From positions 3,432 through 67,431 of the forward strand of contig MGGS01000018.1 of the NCBI GenBank assembly GCA_001792535.1: 64,000 nucleotides of DNA, given 5' to 3'. Every line of letters starts with the position of its first letter. Position 1 is the stretch's first letter. A program made the position numbers and the translations under genes. Source of the DNA: Candidatus Woesebacteria bacterium RIFCSPHIGHO2_02_FULL_42_20 (GTDB taxonomy: Bacteria > Patescibacteriota > Microgenomatia > UBA8517). The notes under the pieces were generated by a model, which saw only the letters and a program-made list of their open reading frames with translations, made no database searches and was not told where the DNA came from. This document shows positions 24,766-58,369 of the stretch, piece by piece.

Positions 24766-26001
24766 ATGAGAAAAATATTAATTTCGGCATCTGCTTTTTT
24801 TCTGATTCTGTTTCTGGCCTCTTTTGATCTTTTCTCCCCGCGCGCGCAGGCCCAAGACGAAAACGGCCACATTCCGGGCCAAGTCCTTGTAAAATTTAAA
24901 GACGGAACCACGAAAGCCAAGAAGGAGAATTTATTAAGAAGTAACCGAGCCCAGGTGGTTGGTAACCTTGAAGCTCTCGGGGTGTCGGTACTGCAAGTCC
25001 CTGGTGTTGCAGAAGAGAGGATAGTTACAGCGCTTTCCAAAAACCCCAACGTCGAATATGCCGAATTAGACTATATCGCCGAGGCTTTCCTTATCCCAAA
25101 CGATACATACTTTAGCCTAAATCAATGGGGTCTTGAAAACACAGGTCAAACTATTAAAGGTGTTGCGGGAAAAATTGACGCCGACGTCAACGGCCCGACT
25201 GCTTGGGAGGTAACCCTTGGAGGAGTGAAAGTTGCAATCCTTGATACCGGCATTGACCAGGACCATGTAGATTTGTCGGCAAAAATTGTTCTGCAGCAAA
25301 ACTTCACAGACTCACCAACAATTAACGACCTTTACGGGCACGGCACCCACGTCGGAGGAATTGTGGCTGCGGTTACCAACAACAACACGGGCGTTGCCGG
25401 AGGTTGCCCTGCTTGCGAACTTATGAACGGAAAAGTCTTAAATGACAAAGGGTCAGGCGCTTACTCATGGATCGCAAACGGCATTACCTGGGCCACAGAC
25501 AACGGAGCCAAGGTAGTCAACATGAGCCTTGGCGGGTCCGCCAGATCCGCTACTTTGGAAAACGCGGTAAATTATGCCTGGAATCGCGGAGTCGTGGTTA
25601 TTGCGGCAGCAGGAAACTCGGCCAATCCATCCAAAACGTATCCTGCAGCCTATACCAATGCAATTGCCGTGGCCGCAACCAACAACAAAGACCAGAAAGC
25701 ATCATTTTCAAGTTACGGAGCAAAGTGGGTCGATGTAGCAGCCCCGGGAGAAAACATCTTTTCTACTTTTCCCAACCACCCTTATAAAATAAATAAATCC
25801 CTGAGTTACGATTTTGGCTCAGGTACATCTATGGCCACGCCGATGACCTCAGCTGTGGCTGCACTCATCTGGTCAACGCCTTACGGAACCTCTGCTTCCA
25901 TGGTCAGAAACAGACTCCAGGCAACCGCTGATAAAATTCCCGGTACCGGGACTTACTGGTCCGCCGGCCGCGTCAATGCCGCCAACGCCATTTCCCCATG
26001 A
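24766..26001 (+). CDS. secreted subtilisin-like serine protease (S8) with N-terminal propeptide
   Basis: Signal peptide; catalytic triad contexts VAILDTGID, HGTHVGGIVAA, GTSMATPMTSAVAAL. SD gaaggtga 13 nt upstream. Confidence 0.9.
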   Translation: MRKILISASAFFLILFLASFDLFSPRAQAQDENGHIPGQVLVKFKDGTTKAKKENLLRSNRAQVVGNLEALGVSVLQVPGVAEERIVTALSKNPNVEYAELDYIAEAFLIPNDTYFSLNQWGLENTGQTIKGVAGKIDADVNGPTAWEVTLGGVKVAILDTGIDQDHVDLSAKIVLQQNFTDSPTINDLYGHGTHVGGIVAAVTNNNTGVAGGCPACELMNGKVLNDKGSGAYSWIANGITWATDNGAKVVNMSLGGSARSATLENAVNYAWNRGVVVIAAAGNSANPSKTYPAAYTNAIAVAATNNKDQKASFSSYGAKWVDVAAPGENIFSTFPNHPYKINKSLSYDFGSGTSMATPMTSAVAALIWSTPYGTSASMVRNRLQATADKIPGTGTYWSAGRVNAANAISP

Positions 26002-26427: not shown

Positions 26428-27768
26428 ATGAAAAGAAGCTTATTAAGTCTTCTGGTAATCGGAGTAGTGGCTGCTGCCGCATTGGGCTTGTCCCGGTCTT
26501 TTTTCTCTGACACCGAAACCTCCTCAGGGAATACTTTCGAAGCCGGCGCTATTGATCTTCTCATTGACAACGTAAGTTATCTAAACGGCAGTTTGAATGA
26601 TGGTACAACCTGGACGCTTGACAACCTCCCCGGTCACTTGTTTTTTAACTTTTTAGACCTTAAACCCGATGACGAAGGAGAGGATACTATTAGTATTCAT
26701 GTCAACAACAACGACGCCTGGGCTTGCATGGAAATGAAGCTCACCGCTAACATCGACAACGGCTGTACGGAGCCGGAAACAGTTGACGGCGATGCCCAAT
26801 GTCCGACTCCCTTTCCATCGCCAACCGCACCGGGAGGAATCGGGGAACTTGGCGACGAAGTCAATTTTGTCTTTTGGGCCGATGACGGGGATAATGTCTT
26901 GGAGGATGATGAATTACCTGTCCTTGCACAAGGCAAGGCAAAAGACGTTCTTAATTCCAAATTTACGCTTGCCGATTCGGCTTCGAGTATTTTTCCTGAA
27001 ATCGTTGACGGGCAACCGCTCGAAGGACTGACTAACTATTACATCGCAAAAGCCTGGTGTTTCGGGACACTCGGGCTTGTCCCCGTTGCCGCAGGCAGTG
27101 GGGTAAATCCGACAGTCGCTTCAGGAATTACCTGCGACGGAACGGCTCTAAACAACATAACCCAAACCGACAAACTGACTGCAGATATCAGTTTTTCGGC
27201 TGTCCAGGCCCGCCACAATCCCGACTTTTTATGCGAACCACAGCCATCTCCCACACCAATCGCCTGTATCGAAACCTATGCGGCAACAGCGCACGAAGTT
27301 AATCAGGGTACTCGCAAAAACGGCACGGCGGTACTAGCCAATCGAAGCGTAGCATCGGCAATGTTCGGCATTCCCCAGACGACTGGAACACCATCGGATG
27401 CCGGTTTCCCAGCCGGGTCATTCTATAGCCTCGGGTTTAATATTGGCAGCTTGGAGGGCGGAAGCGTAGTCCTTGGATTTACCAACCCATTCTACCCAAA
27501 TCCGGCGGGGGCAGACCTGCAAGTTTTTGAAGTCACGGGCGGGACTTACCCCGATGAAAAAGTCAAAGTTGAAGTCGGCACAACTTCAGCCGGTCCCTGG
27601 ACAGTAGTTTCGGCCGCAGCCATCCGCGACGAAGACATTGAAATTCCAGCCGGGTCTTGGCAATTTGTAAGACTGACCGATGTCAGCAATATTGCCCTTT
27701 TTGAATCAACTGCAGATGCTTATGACGTGGATGCCGTCAGGGCTTTGTGCGGAACACCAGGGGATTAA
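26428..27768 (+). CDS. camelysin/TasA-family (peptidase M73-like) secreted protein with SipW-cognate signal peptide
   Basis: Signal peptide, then SRSFFSDTETSSGNTFEAGAIDLLIDN. This matches the CalY/TasA N-terminus (AFFSDxExSxxNTFxAGTLDL). A later LKPDDEGEDTISIHVNNNDAWAC segment is also family-typical. Confidence 0.65.
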   Translation: MKRSLLSLLVIGVVAAAALGLSRSFFSDTETSSGNTFEAGAIDLLIDNVSYLNGSLNDGTTWTLDNLPGHLFFNFLDLKPDDEGEDTISIHVNNNDAWACMEMKLTANIDNGCTEPETVDGDAQCPTPFPSPTAPGGIGELGDEVNFVFWADDGDNVLEDDELPVLAQGKAKDVLNSKFTLADSASSIFPEIVDGQPLEGLTNYYIAKAWCFGTLGLVPVAAGSGVNPTVASGITCDGTALNNITQTDKLTADISFSAVQARHNPDFLCEPQPSPTPIACIETYAATAHEVNQGTRKNGTAVLANRSVASAMFGIPQTTGTPSDAGFPAGSFYSLGFNIGSLEGGSVVLGFTNPFYPNPAGADLQVFEVTGGTYPDEKVKVEVGTTSAGPWTVVSAAAIRDEDIEIPAGSWQFVRLTDVSNIALFESTADAYDVDAVRALCGTPGD

Positions 27769-27869: not shown

Positions 27870-28754
27870 TTGGGTTTTTACCCTAGATTGGTGGTGAGTA
27901 ATATAAGAAAAATTTTACTTAGTTTGCTTTCTATTTCAGCAGTCGCGCTTTTGGCATTCGGCGCCTCGCGAGCTTTCTTTAGCGATGAGGAAACATCAAC
28001 AGGTAATACTTTCGTCGCAGGTGCTATTGATTTACAAATTGATAGCCAATGTCATTATTTCACTGATGAGGATGCTGACGGACAATACCTTGATGTTGGT
28101 TGTTTTACGCCAGCAAGTCCAGAACCAATACCATTCGGTAATTGGCAACTTGGTAATTTGACAACTGAAAAGTTCTTCAATTTTGCTGATGTCAAACCTG
28201 GCGACTGGGGCGAAAATACTATCAGCTTACACGTCTACAACAACGACGCGTGGGCATGTTTAGATATTAGCCCTCTAGCAGATCTGGACAATAGTATCAC
28301 CGAACCTGAGGATGAAGTCGACCTAGCTTTGCCAAGTAACGACGGGACTCCTGATGGAGACTTGGCAGAAAACCTTGAGTTTTTTGCTTGGAGGGACGAT
28401 GGAGACAATGTATTTGAACCACAAGGAAATCCATTGGAAATTCCACTCTTTTCAAACATCAGTGGCCCCGCAAGCGACGTCCTTAGTGGTAGAACTTACA
28501 CCCTCGCGGCACCGGGATCGCCAAATGTTTTTACGGGGGTTGTTGGAGACCCATTAGTTGGTAGTAACAACTACTACATTGGATTAGCATGGTGTGCAGG
28601 TGACTTAAGCGTCGATTTGGGTACTGGAGTAATTACCTGTAATGGATTGACAATGGGTAATATTGCTCAGACAGACTCCGTTTCTGCAGACTTAACATTT
28701 AGGACTGAACAGTCGAGAAACAATCCAGACTTTGACTGTGAAACAGAACTGTAA
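27870..28754 (+). CDS. camelysin/TasA-family secreted protein (paralogue)
   Basis: SRAFFSDEETSTGNTFVAGAIDLQIDS and VKPGDWGENTISLHVYNNDAWAC; paralogous to 26428..27768. Confidence 0.65.
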   Translation: MGFYPRLVVSNIRKILLSLLSISAVALLAFGASRAFFSDEETSTGNTFVAGAIDLQIDSQCHYFTDEDADGQYLDVGCFTPASPEPIPFGNWQLGNLTTEKFFNFADVKPGDWGENTISLHVYNNDAWACLDISPLADLDNSITEPEDEVDLALPSNDGTPDGDLAENLEFFAWRDDGDNVFEPQGNPLEIPLFSNISGPASDVLSGRTYTLAAPGSPNVFTGVVGDPLVGSNNYYIGLAWCAGDLSVDLGTGVITCNGLTMGNIAQTDSVSADLTFRTEQSRNNPDFDCETEL

Positions 28755-28811
28755 GTTTGGAAACTTAGCTCTTGTCCTGCAACCGCGGGACGAGGGCAAG
28801 CCGGAGGATCG

Positions 28812-29963
28812 ATGTCAAATAAGATATCGGGATTCCGGCTTGCCATGGATATAAAAATCTCCAAAGTCATCTATAACACCATCATCTTCCTGATACTCGC
28901 CGCATCGGGCTTTTTGCTTTTTGTTTACTTCGGCAAATTTGATTTTGCCAGCGCTTACATTGTCACCTCGGGATCAATGGCGCCGGCGATTGATACCGGC
29001 AGTATAGTTTTTTCGGTCAAAAGCGACACTTATAAGCCAGGAGATATTATTACATTCACTAACGGCGACAATAAAACCCACATTACTCACCGTATTATTT
29101 ATAAAGATTACCAAAATAACAACTTCATAACTTCAGGCGACGCCAATGAAGACTTGGATCGCTGGACTGTCACCTCCGAAAACGTCAAAGGCAAGGTTTT
29201 ATTCACCATTCCCTACGCGGGGTACCTTGCCAACTTTGCCAAAGAGCCATACGGCTTTATTCTCTTTATCATCGTCCCGGCGACGATAATAATCTACGAG
29301 GAACTTAAACAATTAATCAGTGAATCAATAAAATCAGTAAAGTCATTATTAAGAAAAAAGAGAAGAATATTAACTAATAAGATAAACCTGCTTCCGCAAA
29401 AAAATAATTTCGCTTTGCCCAAAATCGCCATCGCTATCCCGCTTGTGGGCAGCTTCATAGTTTTCGCCTCGCTTTCGGGGTCTTTTTTCTCGGACATTGA
29501 AAACAGCATTGAAAATGTCTTGTCTGCAGCCACTAATTTTGCGACTGCCGGGCCAACGCCCACACCCGCGCCGACAGCGCAAAACCCGATAATCAACGAG
29601 CTCCTACCAAACCCAGATCCGCCATCTGATCCTGAATGGATTGAGCTTTACAATCCAAACAATGCAGGATTTGATCTTACAGGTTGGAATTTGGTCGATG
29701 CCGCCAACAGTTCGCGCCCTCTGCCTTCGCAAATAATTCCGCCGCTTTCATACTTTGTTTATGAAACTCCCGAAGGTTGGTTAAACAATTCATCACCGGG
29801 AGACACTATAACCTTAATTGACCCACTTTCTAACCCCGTCGATCAGTACACATATACAACTGATGTTGCCGACAACAGATCGTTTGCAAGAATACCGGAC
29901 ACCAGCGGAGGCTTTGTACTTTGTCAGATTCCAACCAAAGGCTTGACAAACATCTGTCCATGA
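28812..29963 (+). CDS. ER/archaeal-type signal peptidase I (SipW-like, S26B) fused to a C-terminal lamin-tail domain (LTD)
   Basis: N-terminal TM plus SGSMAPAIDTGSIV (Sec11/SipW SGSMEP box) and a second TM around residue 200. After that TM comes SGSFFSDIENSIEN (SipW-cognate-like motif), a PT linker, then INELLPNPDPPSDPEWIELYNPNNAGFDLTGWNLVD (LTD). Confidence 0.65.
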   Translation: MSNKISGFRLAMDIKISKVIYNTIIFLILAASGFLLFVYFGKFDFASAYIVTSGSMAPAIDTGSIVFSVKSDTYKPGDIITFTNGDNKTHITHRIIYKDYQNNNFITSGDANEDLDRWTVTSENVKGKVLFTIPYAGYLANFAKEPYGFILFIIVPATIIIYEELKQLISESIKSVKSLLRKKRRILTNKINLLPQKNNFALPKIAIAIPLVGSFIVFASLSGSFFSDIENSIENVLSAATNFATAGPTPTPAPTAQNPIINELLPNPDPPSDPEWIELYNPNNAGFDLTGWNLVDAANSSRPLPSQIIPPLSYFVYETPEGWLNNSSPGDTITLIDPLSNPVDQYTYTTDVADNRSFARIPDTSGGFVLCQIPTKGLTNICP

Positions 29964-30955
29964 AAAAAATAAACTTTAAATTAATTTCGACTCTGGTCGG
30001 TGTTGTCATTGTCGCTGCCTTAGCCGGCTACGCCGCTCGGGAGCAGCCGACAACGACGCGCGCTTTCGGCAATTTAGTCGTCACTTTTGAAAGTGACCCA
30101 TTATTTGACTTTGATGACTTTAAGCCCGGCGACTGCACCCAGAAAAGCATTACCGTTACAAATAACCGTGATGAAGAGGTAAGGGTAGCGACAAAGTCTG
30201 CGAATGAGGCGAGTGTTGGAGACTTTGATTTGGCTACACAACTTGATTTCGTAATCAGCGAAAACGGCGTGGCACTTTACGGCGACGCAAGCTCCACGGG
30301 GCCAAAGACTTTAGAGGATTTTTACACAGACAGCGACATTATTGACGGCATAATGCTGACGGATGTCGCAGGCGGCGGAGCCCAAACTGTTTACAAAATA
30401 AGAATTTGCTTTGATATAAATTCCGGCAATGATTATCAGGAAACCAAGACCGTTTTTGATTTAGTTTTTGGCGAAATTTTGGTCCCCGTTAAACTTCCCC
30501 CGGAGTGCCGCCACCTGGAAGGCATTGTCACCGAAAAGATAGAAGGAACAGAAGGTAATGACAACATTCACGGAACAATCGCAAGCGAACTCATAACAGG
30601 TCTGGGGGGTAATGACCGTATTGATCCTTCCAGTGGCCACGACTGCATAGTAGCAGGAGAGGGAAACGACCACGTGGACAGCTCTACAGGCAACGAAGTA
30701 ATACTTGGCGGCGCGGGGAACGACAAGCTTCAAGGAGGAACAGGCAACGACATAATTTATGGCGGAGAAGGAAATGACAATATCGATTTGGGCAGCGGAT
30801 CTGACACGGCATATGGTGAAGCCGGCAATGACCATATTACGGGTGGAAGCGGTGACGATTACCTAGACGGCGGAAGCGACACGGATTCGCTCTTCGGCGG
30901 TTCGGGAACAGATACCTGTGTTTCCGGCGAGAACCTAAACAGTTGTGAGATTTAA
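29960..30955 (+). CDS. secreted TasA-like domain protein with C-terminal RTX-type calcium-binding repeats
   Basis: ATGA start/stop overlap with the upstream gene; signal peptide; FDFDDFKPGDCTQKSITVTNNRDEEV; C-terminal GGxGNDxI nonapeptide repeats. Confidence 0.55.
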   Translation: MKKINFKLISTLVGVVIVAALAGYAAREQPTTTRAFGNLVVTFESDPLFDFDDFKPGDCTQKSITVTNNRDEEVRVATKSANEASVGDFDLATQLDFVISENGVALYGDASSTGPKTLEDFYTDSDIIDGIMLTDVAGGGAQTVYKIRICFDINSGNDYQETKTVFDLVFGEILVPVKLPPECRHLEGIVTEKIEGTEGNDNIHGTIASELITGLGGNDRIDPSSGHDCIVAGEGNDHVDSSTGNEVILGGAGNDKLQGGTGNDIIYGGEGNDNIDLGSGSDTAYGEAGNDHITGGSGDDYLDGGSDTDSLFGGSGTDTCVSGENLNSCEI

Positions 30956-31669: not shown

Positions 31670-33094
31670 TTAATTGCCTCCCGGCGCACCAAAAGGCAGA
31701 TTCATATAGTCGTCCCATCCCCCGGAATTGGTAGTCCTGTCCATTAGACGTGCTCCACTACCGTCACGATCAACGGCAGCAACTGTCTGCCTTATCGAGT
31801 CCGGCCCGCAATCTGTTCTCATCCCCATTGTATCCGTACAAAACGAAGTCTCCCGGCCTGAATTTCTCCAGCTCCAATCCGGCTCATGAATAGTCCTCAC
31901 GTCCCCCGTCCAGAAAGCACTTAGGTCACCAAACGGCGCATTACACGGATTTGTACTTAGGAAACAGAACTCCCCAGAAGTGCTCACCAACTGCACAGAG
32001 TCAGGGCAACCTGCGCTTGCCGATCCGTCGCTAACACACAAAGACGCGTCACCGTGAATATGATTCATAGGATTGGTAACCGCAAATGTGGCCGCCCCCG
32101 AATTCCAAACACCGCCGACATTGACCTGAAAAGGCCAAAGTTCATAAGCAGCGTCCTGGTGATCCACTATTACCCTTGCAGGTTCACTCCCGCCGCGGCC
32201 TGTTCCCTTACTTATCACGTTTCCGGTATCCGCCAACGCATAAATATGGGTATCGGCCGACCAAAACTCGAAACTGTGCATCCTCAAAAACAACCTTCCG
32301 CGGCCGCTAGTTCCTTGGTGAACCGCAACAAAATACGTATCGTTTATACCCGGTCCATAATCAAGTTCGCTTTTGCCAAAACCGTTCAGATTGCCTGCAT
32401 AGTGCGTAAAGACTTTAAAACCGGAGTGTGCTTTTAATTCGTCAAACATACCCGCAACTTTGGCGGCGTAACCAAATGGAGGCAGCGGAGCAGTAGGAGA
32501 GAGTGAAACACTTGGTCCACCCGTAGCTCCCGGCGGTGCGTCGCCGTGTTCATGATTGAAAGCACATTTGGCCCCGCCGGGGTTGGTGGAGTCAATGGGT
32601 ACAACAATAGGGTGCCATGTGCGGTACTTAAGGCCATCCGGCCCGCTGACAAAAAACCTGTCGTGCTCGGTTGCGGTACAACCCTTTACAGATTGGCCGC
32701 GGTAAGGCCCATAACTTAGAGTGGCAGTCTTTGCCGGGTCGCCGATGACCAAAGCCGAAATTTCAGGAAAAGTATCACTATTGCTCGCAGAAGTCCCGCC
32801 TGCGGGCGCGGGTAAAGGAGTAGCAGTCGGGCTAGAAGTCGAAACTGGAGTGGCTGTTGCCCGGGGCGTTGGTGTTCCCGTACAGGTTACTTTTAGTTGC
32901 CTCCTGGCGCGACCATCAAGCCATTGGGCTCCGATTCTACCCGTAACACACGTTACTGTTCCAGACTCACCTGGACCCAGCGCAAAAAGCTTGGCAATAC
33001 TCTGAGCGCTGGTATTTAAAACTTTAGTTGAAAAGAGGTAGCTGATTAACCCTAAGACTAGCGAAGAAAAAAGAAGCGCTGAAAGGCGAAACAT
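31670..33094 (-). CDS. secreted hypothetical protein with Pro/Thr-rich linker
   Basis: Signal peptide MFRLSALLFSSLVLGLISYLF; TPTPRATATPVSTSSPTATPLPAP linker; large Gly/Trp-rich domain of unknown function. Confidence 0.4.
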   Translation of the reverse strand: MFRLSALLFSSLVLGLISYLFSTKVLNTSAQSIAKLFALGPGESGTVTCVTGRIGAQWLDGRARRQLKVTCTGTPTPRATATPVSTSSPTATPLPAPAGGTSASNSDTFPEISALVIGDPAKTATLSYGPYRGQSVKGCTATEHDRFFVSGPDGLKYRTWHPIVVPIDSTNPGGAKCAFNHEHGDAPPGATGGPSVSLSPTAPLPPFGYAAKVAGMFDELKAHSGFKVFTHYAGNLNGFGKSELDYGPGINDTYFVAVHQGTSGRGRLFLRMHSFEFWSADTHIYALADTGNVISKGTGRGGSEPARVIVDHQDAAYELWPFQVNVGGVWNSGAATFAVTNPMNHIHGDASLCVSDGSASAGCPDSVQLVSTSGEFCFLSTNPCNAPFGDLSAFWTGDVRTIHEPDWSWRNSGRETSFCTDTMGMRTDCGPDSIRQTVAAVDRDGSGARLMDRTTNSGGWDDYMNLPFGAPGGN

Positions 33095-33140
33095 AAAAAG
33101 GATGTTACCTAAAACACTCTCGCTTGGCAACAGGCAAATC

Positions 33141-33602
33141 CTAATTTTCAACTACCAATGTCCCTGTCATTGAAGGATGCGGTGTGCAGTGGTAAGCGTA
33201 TTCGCTCTCGGCACTTGGTGCCGTAAATATGACCGACTCGCCTTTGTTTAGCAGTTTGGTGCCAAACGAACTGCCATCATTTGCCGTCATTGTGTGCGCC
33301 GCCGTGTCCCGATTAACTACAGTCACTTTTGCCCCGGGTTTAACCTTAAAAGTTTTGGGCGAAAACGCAAAGTTTTTTATTTCAATTGTAATTTCATCAA
33401 CAGCCCCCTGTGAACTTAGATCACTTTCTTTCAGAGTTTCTGTGTTATCTATTGCTATTTTATCTTCTTCCAAACGAGGACCTTCATTAAAGGGAAAATT
33501 TACCGGTGTAGGTACCGGAGTCACATTACCGCCCCGGACTACGACAAACCCAATTACTACTACAATGACTACCACAACACTCAGCAAAAAACCTTTATTC
33601 AT
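33141..33602 (-). CDS. cupredoxin (plastocyanin/amicyanin-like blue copper protein), membrane-anchored
   Basis: N-terminal TM; type-1 copper ligand pattern AAHTM ... YHCTPHPSMTG (His, Cys-x-x-His-x-x-Met). Confidence 0.7.
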   Translation of the reverse strand: MNKGFLLSVVVVIVVVIGFVVVRGGNVTPVPTPVNFPFNEGPRLEEDKIAIDNTETLKESDLSSQGAVDEITIEIKNFAFSPKTFKVKPGAKVTVVNRDTAAHTMTANDGSSFGTKLLNKGESVIFTAPSAESEYAYHCTPHPSMTGTLVVEN

Positions 33603-57038: not shown

Positions 57039-57503
57039 ATGCATACCGATCAACAGGCCAACAGTCCCGACGTCATTAAAGACATACATCTAAAGGTTGT
57101 AAGAGCCGTGAAAGATGCAGCGTTAAAAGAAATTGCAGAGGAAGATCGTCCACGCAACCGGACAATTGGACCTGCCTTGGATGCCTTCAGACGTTTCCAT
57201 GTCTCAGATCTTACTCTTGGACATCAGCTAACAAGGCTTGCACGCGAAGCTGAGGCCGCCTCCAAACCACTCATTAGCGACACCAGAGACGAGGAAATGG
57301 CATACAGACAGGCAGTTAGAGAAGAAGTTTACCCACAATTGGACGACAAATTAAAAGCTGCATTAGCTAAAGAAGCTCAAAAAGATAAAGAGAGAATGAC
57401 TCAAGCTACAATGAGTGGTGGCTTTGCATTTGGAATTGAGTCTCTACCCGACAGATTGCTATCCAATCTACTATTGGTAGTATCGGAAAGTCTAAAAGGC
57501 TAG
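57039..57503 (+). CDS. hypothetical protein
   Basis: Start moved to the internal Met (MHTDQQ) to avoid antisense overlap; no motifs. Confidence 0.3.
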   Translation: MHTDQQANSPDVIKDIHLKVVRAVKDAALKEIAEEDRPRNRTIGPALDAFRRFHVSDLTLGHQLTRLAREAEAASKPLISDTRDEEMAYRQAVREEVYPQLDDKLKAALAKEAQKDKERMTQATMSGGFAFGIESLPDRLLSNLLLVVSESLKG

Positions 57504-58369
57504 TTTGTTTTATTACTTTGGCTATCAATGAATTCTTTTATCAAGGCTCTTCGTTTAAACAAACTAACACCTGAAAATCCAACTAATCCAAGCCCAACAA
57601 GTACTGGTAAAATTGCCACGACCGGAAAAGAGTTTTGTTCATCACTTACTCCGGCAACTTCACCAATAGGTGAGGGAGAGGAAGTTTCAAACACGACTGA
57701 AGCAACTTCATCTTCCTGGTTTGTCTCTTCGGTTTCGCTAGTCTTAGGAGTAGAAGTAGCTTTAAGAGTAGATTTTGGAGTTACTATTGGAGTTGCCGTC
57801 GGTTTTTGAGTCGGAGGCGGGGTCGGAAACTTCGTCGGAGTAGATGTGGGTTTCGGTGTTGCTGTTGGGGTTGGATCAGGGGTTGGAGTGGAGCAGAGTA
57901 CCTCACTTGAACTTGAATTACTAGCAGCTTTTGTACTTGATGAAAATCTCACAAAGTTTCCTGACCCGTCAGGACTTCTTCCTATAGACTGGCCTGATTC
58001 GGCCGCACAAATTCCGCCCTCATCTCCGTAAGAAACTGTATTGATTTCTTCATTGCTGGAAATAAGAATCAATTTTATTTCGTCACCATCATTGTTTAAT
58101 CTATTTGACCAGTCAAAAGCTGCAAATCCTCCGGGGTCAATAATACTTGATAAGATCTTCTCATTATCGGCTGCATCAACCAGTTTATAAAGCGACAAAT
58201 CATGGGGTAGCGGTGACTCCTGCGGTAGAACGTGGATCTCTACCCAGTCGTCACTTGAGGAACCCGAACTAAACTCATTTATCACAACTTGTGAATAAAC
58301 CTCTCGAGAATAGAGAATTAGACAAAGTATAAATACATAAATTGATAAACCAATTTTTAAAATTCTCAT
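57500..58369 (-). CDS. secreted lamin-tail-domain (LTD) protein with PT-rich linker and C-terminal TM anchor
   Basis: Signal peptide; VVINEFSSGSSSDDWVEIHV LTD-like start; TPTPDPTPTATPKPTSTPT linker; C-terminal hydrophobic stretch plus KRR. Confidence 0.45.
   Translation of the reverse strand: MRILKIGLSIYVFILCLILYSREVYSQVVINEFSSGSSSDDWVEIHVLPQESPLPHDLSLYKLVDAADNEKILSSIIDPGGFAAFDWSNRLNNDGDEIKLILISSNEEINTVSYGDEGGICAAESGQSIGRSPDGSGNFVRFSSSTKAASNSSSSEVLCSTPTPDPTPTATPKPTSTPTKFPTPPPTQKPTATPIVTPKSTLKATSTPKTSETEETNQEDEVASVVFETSSPSPIGEVAGVSDEQNSFPVVAILPVLVGLGLVGFSGVSLFKRRALIKEFIDSQSNKTN

Follow-up and report, generated by a model that had tools for sequence, protein, structure and literature searches.

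A SipW-like signal peptidase fused to a substrate-like lamin-tail module in Patescibacteria, and its possible role in starting TasA-type fibres

Donor-strand fibres of the TasA type form a principal scaffold of biofilms in Firmicutes and archaea. Their initiation and anchoring, for which TapA of Bacillus subtilis provides the only known example, are still under debate. In TapA a signal peptide precedes an N-terminal donor strand that is unstructured and a complete Ig fold; the protein is confined to the start of the filament (Roske et al. 2023, PMC10151520). TapA and SipW are equally scarce, their genes overlap, and residues 44–57 of TapA are enough for biofilm formation (PMC10151520). In TasA the donor strand comprises residues 28–38, which lie right after the SipW site, and the N-terminus of TapA is similar (Boehning et al. 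2022, PMC9674648). TasA homologues have also been reported in Patescibacteria (PMC9245690). In archaea, the bundling pili AbpA/AbpB are TasA-related donor-strand fibres, for which it has been proposed that AbpB supplies the first complementing strand and that its distal beta domains are adhesins (Wang et al. 2022, PMC9245690).

Here we describe a gene of Candidatus Woesebacteria bacterium RIFCSPHIGHO2_02_FULL_42_20, located in a 64,000-nucleotide stretch of DNA (hereafter the window), that may be compared with each of these systems. [quoted passage not shown] The module has the layout of TapA (a SipW-type signal, an unstructured donor-like strand, a complete Ig-like domain, and sipW- and tasA-like neighbours), and just as the TapA strand alone is sufficient for function in B. 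subtilis, the family of the window protein includes strand-only forms. The sandwich, in contrast to that of TapA, is a lamin-tail domain (LTD), and the likeness is one of functional analogy, the fibres here being predicted ones. The AbpA/AbpB operon differs in having neither a dedicated peptidase nor a fusion, and in its lineage and domains.

The peptidase itself resembles the ER/archaeal-type signal peptidase I (MEROPS S26B: SEC11, archaeal signal peptidase and SipW), with which it shares the SGSM-x-P, H-R and GDAN...D boxes and a catalytic domain placed between two TM helices; it differs in possessing ~220 extra C-terminal residues, which include a third TM helix as well as a site that resembles that of a substrate. 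The signal-peptidase fold is recruited to pilus assembly in Streptococcus pyogenes, where SipA/LepA, a protein without the catalytic residues, serves sortase-linked pili. SipA (PDB 4n31), which is among the fold matches of the window protein, is homologous to signal peptidases and has been described as indispensable for the polymerisation of pili; the window protein, unlike SipA, retains the catalytic residues and carries a substrate-like module. Public records name the protein merely "signal peptidase I", and in the literature searched, where the relevant paper on TasA in CPR bacteria is PMC9245690, we found no description of a fusion of SipW to an LTD or to a substrate.

Architecture of the fusion protein

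The gene is a single open reading frame that begins with ATG and contains no internal stop codon (Table 1). Its annotated start, at 28845, yields a protein of 372 residues, a version present in four NCBI MAG records; the start at 28812 is favored because of the position of the GGAGGA sequence and because of the 383-aa calls.

The N-terminal part matches the NCBIfam model TIGR02228 (sigpep_I_arch) over residues 15–166 (E 3.9e-30; 104.8 bits against a cut-off of 51.85), a match that spans model positions 2–156 of 158. The SGSMAP box, at residues 53–58, is flanked by TM1 and TM2, in keeping with a preliminary description of the sequence that had placed the catalytic box between two TM helices. 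Across 71 aligned family sequences S53, G54, S55, M56, P58, H93, R94 and D116 are invariant, and D110 is kept in at least 90%; a PATIIIYEE box at TM2 is also conserved in the family. The catalytic partner of the serine in the SGSM box is His, not Lys. In the AF2 model the catalytic domain has a pLDDT above 90 over residues 47–133, and its best PDB fold matches are to SEC11 of the human signal peptidase complex (7p2q, E 8.6e-6, and 7p2p); S24/LexA-type C-terminal domains are among its fold and Pfam matches. The equivalog model for Bacillus SipW (NF046067) gives 93.4 bits, which is under its cut-off of 190. Judged by these comparisons, the peptidase is a SipW-like enzyme that falls outside the Bacillus orthologue group; its catalytic Ser, His and Asp are intact, and we predict it to be an active ER/SipW-type signal peptidase I.

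A hydropathy scan gave three hydrophobic segments, at residues ~21–41, 147–163 and 205–224. Combined with the positive-inside rule, the scan suggests a protein with its N-terminus inside, followed by TM1, the catalytic domain outside, TM2, a loop inside, TM3, and finally strand, linker and LTD outside. The basic loop appears to correspond to the n-region of a former signal peptide; an equivalent K/R-rich stretch opens the separate LTD gene in one of the split forms described below (L050). Straight after TM3, at residue 225, begins the sequence FFSDIENSIEN. Residues 231–254 are disordered in the AF2 model (pLDDT <50), and homologues have PT linkers at the equivalent place.

That the PT linker leads into a lamin-tail domain, as first proposed, is borne out by a match to PF00932 over residues 253–349 (E 2.2e-15; 57.4 bits against 34.3; model positions 2–108 of 109), and the protein has profile matches of both kinds, S26-type and LTD. 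The strands of the LTD (residues 260–371) are modelled with pLDDT above 90 and form a complete sandwich, for which Foldseek returned the lamin Ig domains 3jt0, 3gef, 3umn and 2lll. Among Pfam families the whole protein matched LTD, S24, S26 and LPD29 only, and we found no homology of its sequence to TapA. The second, separate LTD protein noted earlier is also present, on the minus strand. Its signal peptide is without FFSD and its gene lies outside the operon of the fusion; it shows the LTD used as a surface module in the same organism.

Table 1. Positions of the fusion gene, its parts and other genes in the window.
Feature	Position	Strand	Description and basis
Fusion gene, 383 aa	28812..29963	+	Peptidase, basic loop, TM3, donor-strand-like motif, PT linker, LTD
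Shine-Dalgarno-like GGAGGA	28803..28808	+	3 nt (TCG) before ATG 28812; read from sequence
TM1, ~residues 21–41	28872..28934	+	N-in/C-out peptidase anchor; hydropathy scan; AF2 helix 5–40
Catalytic domain, residues 42–145, extracytoplasmic	28935..29246	+	TIGR02228; invariant residues; AF2 pLDDT >90; SEC11 fold
Ser55	28974..28976	+	Catalytic residue
His93	29088..29090	+	Catalytic residue
Asp116	29157..29159	+	Catalytic residue
TM2 GFILFIIVPATIIIY, ~residues 147–163	29250..29300	+	Chain back to cytoplasm; hydropathy; AF2 helix 146–188
K/R-rich loop, residues 164–204, cytoplasmic	29301..29423	+	11 Lys/Arg; sequence
TM3 IAIAIPLVGSFIVFASLSGS, residues 205–224	29424..29483	+	Internal signal-peptide-like h/c-region; module HMM; AF2 helix 205–226
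Donor-strand-like motif FFSDIENSIENVLSAATNF, residues 225–243	29484..29540	+	Pattern equals first mature residues of TasA-like neighbors
Pro/Thr-rich linker, residues 244–259	29541..29588	+	Sequence; low pLDDT
Lamin-tail domain, residues 260–383, predicted extracellular	29589..29960	+	9-strand Ig-like sandwich; PF00932; AF2; Foldseek
TasA-like protein 1, 446 aa	26428..27768	+	Extra C-terminal domain; module HMM E 8e-8
TasA-like protein 2, 294 aa	27870..28754	+	TIGR04088 20.9 bits vs cut-off 19
RTX gene	29960..30955	+	PF00353 E 6.8e-37, weak PF12389
Separate LTD surface protein	57500..58369	-	Ordinary signal peptide, LTD, PT-rich stalk, C-terminal TM anchor

The internal module and the neighboring TasA-like proteins

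The synteny of the locus is one of TasA-like genes upstream of the fusion and a camelysin-like/RTX gene directly downstream. The two upstream products are predicted SipW substrates and fibre subunits. The first (26428) has a cognate N-terminal signal that ends in GLSRS and is followed by FFSDTETSSGNTF; it has no Pfam match and was found with custom HMMs only, our own TasA-body HMM matching residues 62–274. The signal of the second (27870) ends in GASRA and is followed by FFSDEETSTGNTF. This protein reaches 21.2 bits with PF12389, slightly under the cut-off of 22.5, and has 2748 homologues, many with PF12389 or named 'TasA family'. The sole PDB match with E <1e-3 for its AF2 model (pLDDT 81.5) is the TasA fibre 8aur; the match is modest (E 2.8e-4, TM 0.34–0.42) and came from the fold search alone, a search of the PDB with the TasA-like sequence profile giving no match. 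The ATG of the downstream gene overlaps the stop codon of the fusion (ATGA). Its product begins with a TM or signal segment that lacks FFSD and has in addition a camelysin-like beta domain along with Ca-binding repeats of the RTX type, and this neighbor is kept in the same position in relatives L001, L002 and L049.

For the internal module we built an HMM from 105 homologues, excluding close relatives, and ran it on all 471 six-frame ORFs of the window. The fusion ORF was matched with an E-value of 1.6e-22, followed only by the two adjacent TasA-like ORFs (5e-8 and 8e-8), both of which align to the model at their N-terminal signal peptide and FFSD; the next-best match had an E-value of 0.25. 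The preliminary description had seen in the extension a near-copy of the cleavage-region motif of the neighbors, and the model matches just those two neighbors, at E ~1e-7. Homology between the module and the signal/FFSD region of the adjacent TasA-like proteins is, on this sequence comparison, well supported. The curated model TIGR04088 (cognate_SipW) did not match residues 181–253 alone, even at E<=10; this model is Firmicute-centered, and the N-terminal 59 residues of the genuine neighbor 26428 score just E 0.13.

The module has the geometry of a cleavage site. SipW cleavage is predicted between S224 and F225 (nt 29483 and 29484), with Ser at both -1 and -3; small residues occupy -3 and -1 in ~84% of the fused modules, whose column-by-column composition resembles that of free substrates. 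Counted from the last n-region charge, P1' lies at a distance of 20 residues in 124 of 197 fused modules (IQR 20–20) and of 21 residues in 90 of 109 free substrates. Homology of the module, the -3/-1 residues, this spacing of 20–21 residues and the split gene pairs considered below together give good support to a further early claim, namely that the peptidase is fused to a domain resembling its own substrate.

TM3 of the fused modules carries a proline, which is P210 in the window protein, in 188 of 197 cases, compared with one of 109 free substrates, and its consensus includes a conserved glycine. Given the proline, TM3 may be a permanent, packed part of the enzyme and not a disposable signal peptide, and both residues would suit a structural helix. 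We therefore hold it possible, though doubtful, that the site stays uncut: TM3 would be a stable third helix, the peptidase would display strand and LTD at the membrane surface, and a fibre, or only the LTD adhesin, would be nucleated on and anchored to the very enzyme that matures the subunits, making one protein an assembly platform. However, at an overall identity of 33–47% the site still has its small -3 and -1 residues and a ruler of exactly 20 residues, which is easier to explain if it is still cut, and the split orthologues are ordinary cleavable pre-proteins.

It is rare for a signal peptidase to hold its own substrate site in cis. Distantly related LexA-type proteases act in cis comparably, self-recognition in cis being found in the related clan-SF proteases LexA and lambda cI. 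By analogy, TM3 and the motif might fill the peptidase's own groove as an autoinhibitory pseudosubstrate that regulates its activity. The S24/LexA-type matches of the catalytic domain, the very high local concentration of a tethered site and the conserved proline of TM3 would all agree with regulation of this kind; yet the site is indistinguishable from a normal cleavable one, the split forms show the module to be an ordinary secreted protein, and there is no sign of a release signal. We consider autoinhibition very unlikely.

Conservation does not end at the predicted cleavage site: the residues that follow it, of the general form [FY]F-x-D-x-E-x-S-x-x-N, are conserved as strongly as those that precede it. 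Conservation of the strand is weaker in the fused modules than in the TasA-like subunits. By analogy with the fibres of B. subtilis, the motif would be the counterpart of the donor strand at the N-terminus of TasA and TapA, a match that points to a role as a TapA-like fibre initiator. No locus-specific co-variation was detected between the fused strand and the strands of the neighboring subunits (identity 0.466 with own versus 0.453 with other loci; permutation p=0.14); the motif is too strongly conserved for this comparison to be informative.

The motif-coding DNA of the fusion is only 44–57% identical to that of the TasA-like genes, and a recent gene conversion was accordingly rejected. "Terminator-like" matches at 29466 and 26481 proved to be merely the SFFSD codons (TCT TTT TTC TC), and a search of the whole window against Rfam gave no match.

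Conservation of the fusion and its split relatives

The identical 383-aa protein is found on 31 contigs (JGI, Logan and ENA). Cluster representatives at E<=1e-30 number 335; the combination of peptidase and internal module is present in 196 distinct cluster representatives, with the LTD as well in 121 of those. In diverged representatives, with 33–50% identity, a single frame still runs unbroken from the peptidase through loop and TM3 into the motif. The sequence had been described from the outset as continuing in frame past the second TM, and the open reading frame, the identical contigs and the 196 representatives all uphold this. A frameshift or an assembly join might be suspected, the two parts being separate overlapping genes in some relatives; nevertheless, the 31 contigs, several independent MAGs and the 196 representatives rule out an artefact for practical purposes, and a sequencing error that fused two genes is excluded by the same representatives together with the independent assemblies.

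Among Patescibacteria relatives, 24 of 67 unfused sipW genes have a separate LTD gene immediately downstream, often overlapping. Each of these 24 LTD genes encodes a signal peptide and a variant of the motif (17 recognised by regular expression, the remainder by eye). The layout of the C-terminal module of the window protein is matched exactly by separate genes in L029 (Roizmanbacteria), L072 (Gottesmanbacteria), L077 (Levyibacteriota) and L050, in which the same components follow in the same order as in the fusion: the split LTD protein, with its signal peptide, FFxD motif, PT linker and LTD, is the equivalent of window residues ~190–383. The difference is that the pairs consist of two genes, often overlapping by a few to ~80 nt, whereas the window has one; and that the split LTD protein, translated from a start codon of its own, is an ordinary pre-protein, whereas its counterpart in the window is internal. 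Since these 24 unfused sipW genes are followed by a gene for signal, motif and LTD, we conclude that the window gene is a fusion of a conserved enzyme-substrate pair. The sipW-LTD pairing is found inside TasA-like operons across Patescibacteria.

The constant part of the family is TM3 plus strand, not the LTD. In fused homologues the strand is followed by an LTD, by one of three other unnamed domains or by multiple domains, and Pfam gave no match to the alternative C-terminal cargo domains. In some species globular cargo is missing and the protein ends 22–60 residues past the site (about 20 in L022). Domains that vary between homologues, a fusion that seems to have arisen in several lineages, and the occurrence of the LTD on an unrelated anchored surface protein of the same organism would be expected if FFSD were only a determinant of SipW recognition and cleavage, and the LTD protein a secreted cargo, for example an adhesin. 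Loss of a stop codon between overlapping genes would then have produced the fusion, without any part in fibre initiation; such an event would be mechanistically easy, because in split forms sipW overlaps the gene that lies downstream of it. We nonetheless think this explanation improbable. The cargo-less forms retain TM3 and strand; the residues beyond the site, besides being as conserved as those before it, fall on the donor strand that experiments have defined in TasA and TapA; and the sipW-LTD pairs sit in TasA-like operons across the phylum.

A candidate TapA-like fibre initiator

On balance we favor the reading that SipW has here been fused to a TapA-like fibre initiator, made up of a donor strand and a complete Ig-like domain, which is probably released between S224 and F225. 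Both the role in initiation and the cleavage we infer largely from the likeness to TapA. The disorder of the strand and the completeness of the LTD in the AF2 model count for an initiator, and the cargo-less forms parallel TapA, in which a short strand region suffices.

The C-terminus of the peptidase has been joined to what is normally, in Patescibacteria, the product of the next gene after sipW, a SipW-dependent secreted protein comprising signal peptide, strand, PT linker and complete Ig-like LTD. If the module is an initiator, the enzyme would trim the signal peptides of the adjacent TasA-like subunits and thereby expose their N-terminal donor strands. Its own C-terminal module would serve as fibre initiator: the flexible strand after TM3 would enter the groove of the first TasA-like subunit, and this insertion would start polymerisation by donor-strand exchange. 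The LTD would mark the start of the fibre, because its complete sandwich is unable to accept a strand, and it may serve as an adhesin. The module would most probably be freed between S224 and F225, in cis or by a neighboring molecule, giving a three-TM peptidase and a 159-aa strand-linker-LTD protein at 1:1 stoichiometry. Against this model it may be said that a covalently tethered signal peptide, once retained, could be a competitor of the substrates at the active site.

The shortest forms bear also on an uncut site, since a protein that ends ~20 residues beyond it (L022) makes sense as a tethered strand; for TapA, moreover, colocalisation with the membrane and anchoring of fibres have been reported (PMC10151520, PMC9674648). 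The preliminary description had taken the fusion to suggest autoprocessing or tethering of the LTD at the cell surface; of the two outcomes, release of the initiator is the one we prefer.

In either case the family offers a natural experiment, in which an initiator-like strand has been hard-wired to the processing peptidase of a large group of uncultivated, ultra-small bacteria, sometimes with nothing else attached. The arrangement lends independent support to the view that the "SipW cognate" motif really is a donor strand, and to the view that initiator and peptidase act together, 1:1. At a practical level, hundreds of database entries labelled "signal peptidase I" could be corrected by a rule derived from the family.

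The locus provides a candidate surface fibre and adhesin system for Patescibacteria, in whose biology attachment to host cells is central. Should the site remain uncut, which we regard as the main, though tentative, alternative, the peptidase would be a self-contained platform for the assembly of fibres by donor-strand exchange in a single-membrane bacterium. A single polypeptide would then mature TasA-like subunits, nucleate the fibre and anchor it permanently with an LTD adhesin, and would be a one-protein functional counterpart of the chaperone-usher or sortase machineries; as such it may bear on host attachment by episymbiotic Patescibacteria.

The fused gene and its family

The preliminary description placed here a SipW-type signal peptidase joined to a module resembling its own substrate. 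A single uninterrupted reading frame, preceded by a GGAGGA box, encodes the peptidase, a third membrane segment (TM3), an FFSD motif and a lamin-tail domain (LTD); the frame ends in a TGA that shares bases with the start codon (ATG) of the following gene. Residues 15-166 score 104.8 bits (E 3.9e-30; cut-off 51.85) with TIGR02228, the model for ER/archaeal-type signal peptidase I, and residues 253-349 match PF00932, the LTD, above the gathering score (E 2.2e-15), so that both domains first described are present. With the Bacillus SipW equivalog model the score is 93.4 bits, short of the 190 that this model requires. Hydropathy marks three membrane segments (approximately 21-41, 147-163 and 205-224), and since loop 164-204 carries 11 Lys/Arg residues, the positive-inside rule would place the catalytic domain and everything past residue 224 outside the cell.

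An AlphaFold2 model (alignment of 71 sequences, mean pLDDT 84) is confident for the peptidase domain (strands 47-133) and for a nine-strand sandwich (260-371). A long helix at 146-188 comprises TM2 and a cytoplasmic extension, and TM3 forms helix 205-226; residues 227-254, containing the FFSD motif and the PT linker, are disordered (pLDDT <50). In the PDB, Foldseek's top match is human SEC11 of the signal peptidase complex (7p2q, E 8.6e-6), followed by the Streptococcus pyogenes pilus-assembly protein SipA (4n31) and then lamin Ig-fold domains (3jt0, 3gef, 3umn). Because S53-G54-S55-M56-x-P58, H93-R94 and D116 are invariant among the 71 aligned sequences, the enzyme is expected to be active.

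A word-indexed search returned 162 relatives, most with an LTD, and phmmer, run exhaustively over 1.84 billion representatives, gave 335 matches at E<=1e-30. When the two were pooled, 196 of 221 distinct proteins contained peptidase plus internal module (TM3 and the donor-strand-like motif that starts at residue 225), 121 of these with the LTD as well; 21 further proteins are giant multi-LTD proteins that match by the LTD alone. Gene calls on 31 contigs, taken from several sources, give the exact 383-aa sequence. Together with the 196 proteins this rules out an artefactual fusion through sequencing error. All public names met for fusion proteins were simply "signal peptidase I", and the identical protein in the databases places the window in a Patescibacterium (Microgenomates group).

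Features of the window and of related loci
Feature	Coordinates	Strand	Description
Subtilase	24766-26001	+	secreted; PF00082, E 7.7e-55; fervidolysin-like N-terminal prodomain
TasA-like gene 1	26428-27768	+	extra C-terminal domain of ~165 aa (residues ~280-446) after PSPTP linker
TasA-like gene 2	27870-28754
GGAGGA box	28803-28808		5' of fusion
Fusion	28812-29963	+	383 aa
TM3 of fusion	29424-29483		residues 205-224
Hairpin plus T-run matches	29466-29491; 26481-26507		false positives
Downstream gene	29960-30955	+	directly 3' of fusion; ATGA overlap
Downstream gene, relatives	L001 7781-8917; L002 7310-8539; L049 6935-8221		same position
493-aa protein	31670-33151	-	predicted secreted; PT-rich region
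Cupredoxin-like ORF	33141-33602		153 aa; C-terminal HCTPHPSMTG motif
Second LTD protein	57500-58369	-	signal peptide, LTD, PT-rich stalk, TM anchor
Paired SipW paralogues	L060 5965-7640; L064 5872-7443; L074 6010-7600		flank ~190-aa secreted protein
Haloarchaeal SipW-like peptidases	L061 5896-6870; L063 496-1722		C-terminal extensions of 324 and 408 aa

The internal module and the free substrates

The curated model TIGR04088 did not match the isolated module, and a direct test was therefore made with a family-specific HMM of the TM3 and motif region (105 homologues, closest relatives left out), run against the window's 471 six-frame ORFs. The best match was the fusion itself (E 1.6e-22). The only others were the adjacent TasA-like genes 2 (E 5e-8) and 1 (E 8e-8), both aligned exactly at the N-terminal signal peptide plus FFSD; the following match stood at E 0.25. 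The proposed resemblance to neighbouring substrates is thereby upheld.

Column by column, the two sets are almost alike: free substrates (n=119) read T(-3) G A(-1), then F F S D T E T S T G N T F x A past the site, and fused modules (n=117) S/T(-3) x S/A(-1), then F/Y F S/F D x E x S x G N I/V F/L x A. The distance from the last n-region charge to the predicted P1' residue is tightly fixed in both, with a mode of 20 residues in fused modules (IQR 20-20; 124/197) and of 21 in free substrates (90/109). In the fusion the predicted site falls between S224 and F225, with Ser at -1 and -3. By HMM match, composition and spacing, the module is anatomically a complete SipW-type signal peptide.

The sole systematic difference is a proline in the hydrophobic segment (P210 in the fusion, with a conserved Gly three residues further on), present in 188/197 fused modules and 1/109 free substrates, that is, missing from 108 of the 109 TasA-like signal peptides. 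It may pack TM3 against the enzyme or provide a kink that reaches the active site in cis. Its conservation also speaks for the main rival explanation, a permanent tether in which the internal site stays uncut; the preserved anatomy of the site favours cleavage at S224-F225, which would occur in cis or in trans.

Neither strand co-variation specific to the locus nor gene conversion at the DNA level was found. Two terminator-like matches of the consensus scan are false positives: they fall within genes, on the codons for S-F-F-S (TCT TTT TTC TC) in the cognate motif.

Gene order, cargo and neighbouring genes

With HMMs built here for the peptidase, the module, the LTD and the TasA body, we scanned 80 GTDB species loci and three from neighbourhood look-ups, one of the three being already among the GTDB loci. 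The fused form occurs at 26 loci; informative record titles name Woese-, Chisholm-, Gottesman- and Amesbacteria and other Microgenomates, and one to three TasA-like genes with the N-terminal motif almost always lie upstream. More divergent fused forms belong to Saccharimonadales, WWE3, Shapirobacteria and Minisyncoccia (loci L025, L059, L082, L041, L070, L052). Directly after unfused sipW, a separate LTD-containing ORF follows in 24 of 67 cases, overlapping or <=300 nt away; the motif stands after the signal peptide in 17 of these 24 (regex), with variants, seen by eye, in the other seven. The small separate proteins (L029, 240 aa; L072, 235 aa; L077, 246 aa; L050, 248 aa; L039, 250 aa) run signal peptide, FFxD strand, PT linker, LTD, the layout of fusion residues ~190-383. 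Given this gene order, the window gene is a fusion of a conserved sipW-then-substrate pair, in which the former n-region of the substrate has become the cytoplasmic loop that joins TM2 to TM3.

Beyond the strand, fused proteins carry an LTD in the majority, and otherwise one of at least three other unnamed domains or no domain. The alternative domains have no Pfam match; their signatures are ENK.VF..W.AILGDG..GTLKY.PEGP (proteins P0043, P0060, P0064, P0080), GEKTA.LYDS.E.TCP.GA (P0049, P0056, P0073, P0095, locus L009) and ICHVAGR.D.PANYITL...GHF.E.G.P.AGHEEDY.GPC (L017, L019, P0110). Five cargo-less forms, L020 to L024, are complete genes with stop codons within the contig and have a short tail only (L021, 232 aa; L022, 221 aa, ending 19 residues past the predicted site). 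Since cargo varies or is absent while the strand is kept, the selected unit is peptidase, TM3 and strand.

Paired SipW paralogues at Roizman- and Shapirobacteria-type loci represent another layout of the same toolkit. The haloarchaeal extensions, with extra hydrophobic segments and no FFSD-type motif, may be an independent elaboration. Several GTDB representative MAGs with Patescibacteria-type sipW/TasA-like/LTD operons (L008, L010, L011, L013, L020, L022, L023 and others) are titled 'uncultured Gammaproteobacteria', 'Pseudomonadales' or 'Bdellovibrionales', probably wrong labels in third-party assemblies.

TasA-like protein 2 has 2748 relatives, many with PF12389 or named TasA family. Its AlphaFold2 model (pLDDT 81.5) has, as in the fusion, a disordered motif segment, and its only PDB match at E <1e-3 is the TasA fibre 8aur (E 2.8e-4); the TasA-like profile matched no PDB sequence. 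The extra domain of TasA-like protein 1 (...DLQVFEVTGG...DAYDVDAVRAL) has no Pfam match. The translationally coupled downstream gene encodes an N-terminal TM/signal that lacks FFSD as donor motif, a beta domain of camelysin type (weakly matched by PF12389 and TIGR04090) and RTX Ca-binding repeats; with a possible acceptor domain and no donor strand, its product might end the fibre or anchor it. The separate second LTD protein of the preliminary description is present: its ordinary signal peptide (without FFSD), long stalk and C-terminal anchor with KRR indicate that LTDs are also displayed by a conventional route. The subtilase, just upstream of the TasA-like genes, has no counterpart at the corresponding position in the gene tables of L001-L003 and is thus probably outside the conserved operon. 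The 493-aa protein, which the cupredoxin-like ORF follows, matched neither Pfam nor NCBIfam. Over the whole window, Rfam gave no matches.

Likeness to TapA

In Bacillus subtilis, TasA residues 28-38, directly past the SipW cleavage site, form the fibre donor strand, which the TapA N-terminus resembles (PMC9674648). TapA begins with a signal peptide (residues 1-43); residues 44-57, the smallest part that still functions, donate a strand, and a complete Ig fold, unable to accept one, confines the protein to the filament start. TapA and SipW are equally scarce, and their genes overlap (PMC10151520). TasA homologues are reported in Patescibacteria, and an initiator/adhesin role has been proposed for the archaeal accessory protein AbpB (PMC9245690).

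The window module compares point by point: its signal is of the SipW type, its strand is flexible and bears the subunit motif, its Ig-like sandwich is complete, and it is encoded together with sipW in an operon of TasA-like type. Fused proteins without cargo correspond to minimal TapA. All the parts, namely S26B peptidase, LTD and TasA-like substrates, are already known, and public databases list the protein by a generic name; a literature search found no description of the fusion, and a conserved union of an enzyme with its own substrate or initiator appears to be undescribed. The initial reading is thus supported and sharpened: from this match we infer, as the best explanation, that the protein is SipW joined to a TapA-like fibre initiator, which would be cleaved and would initiate the fibre.
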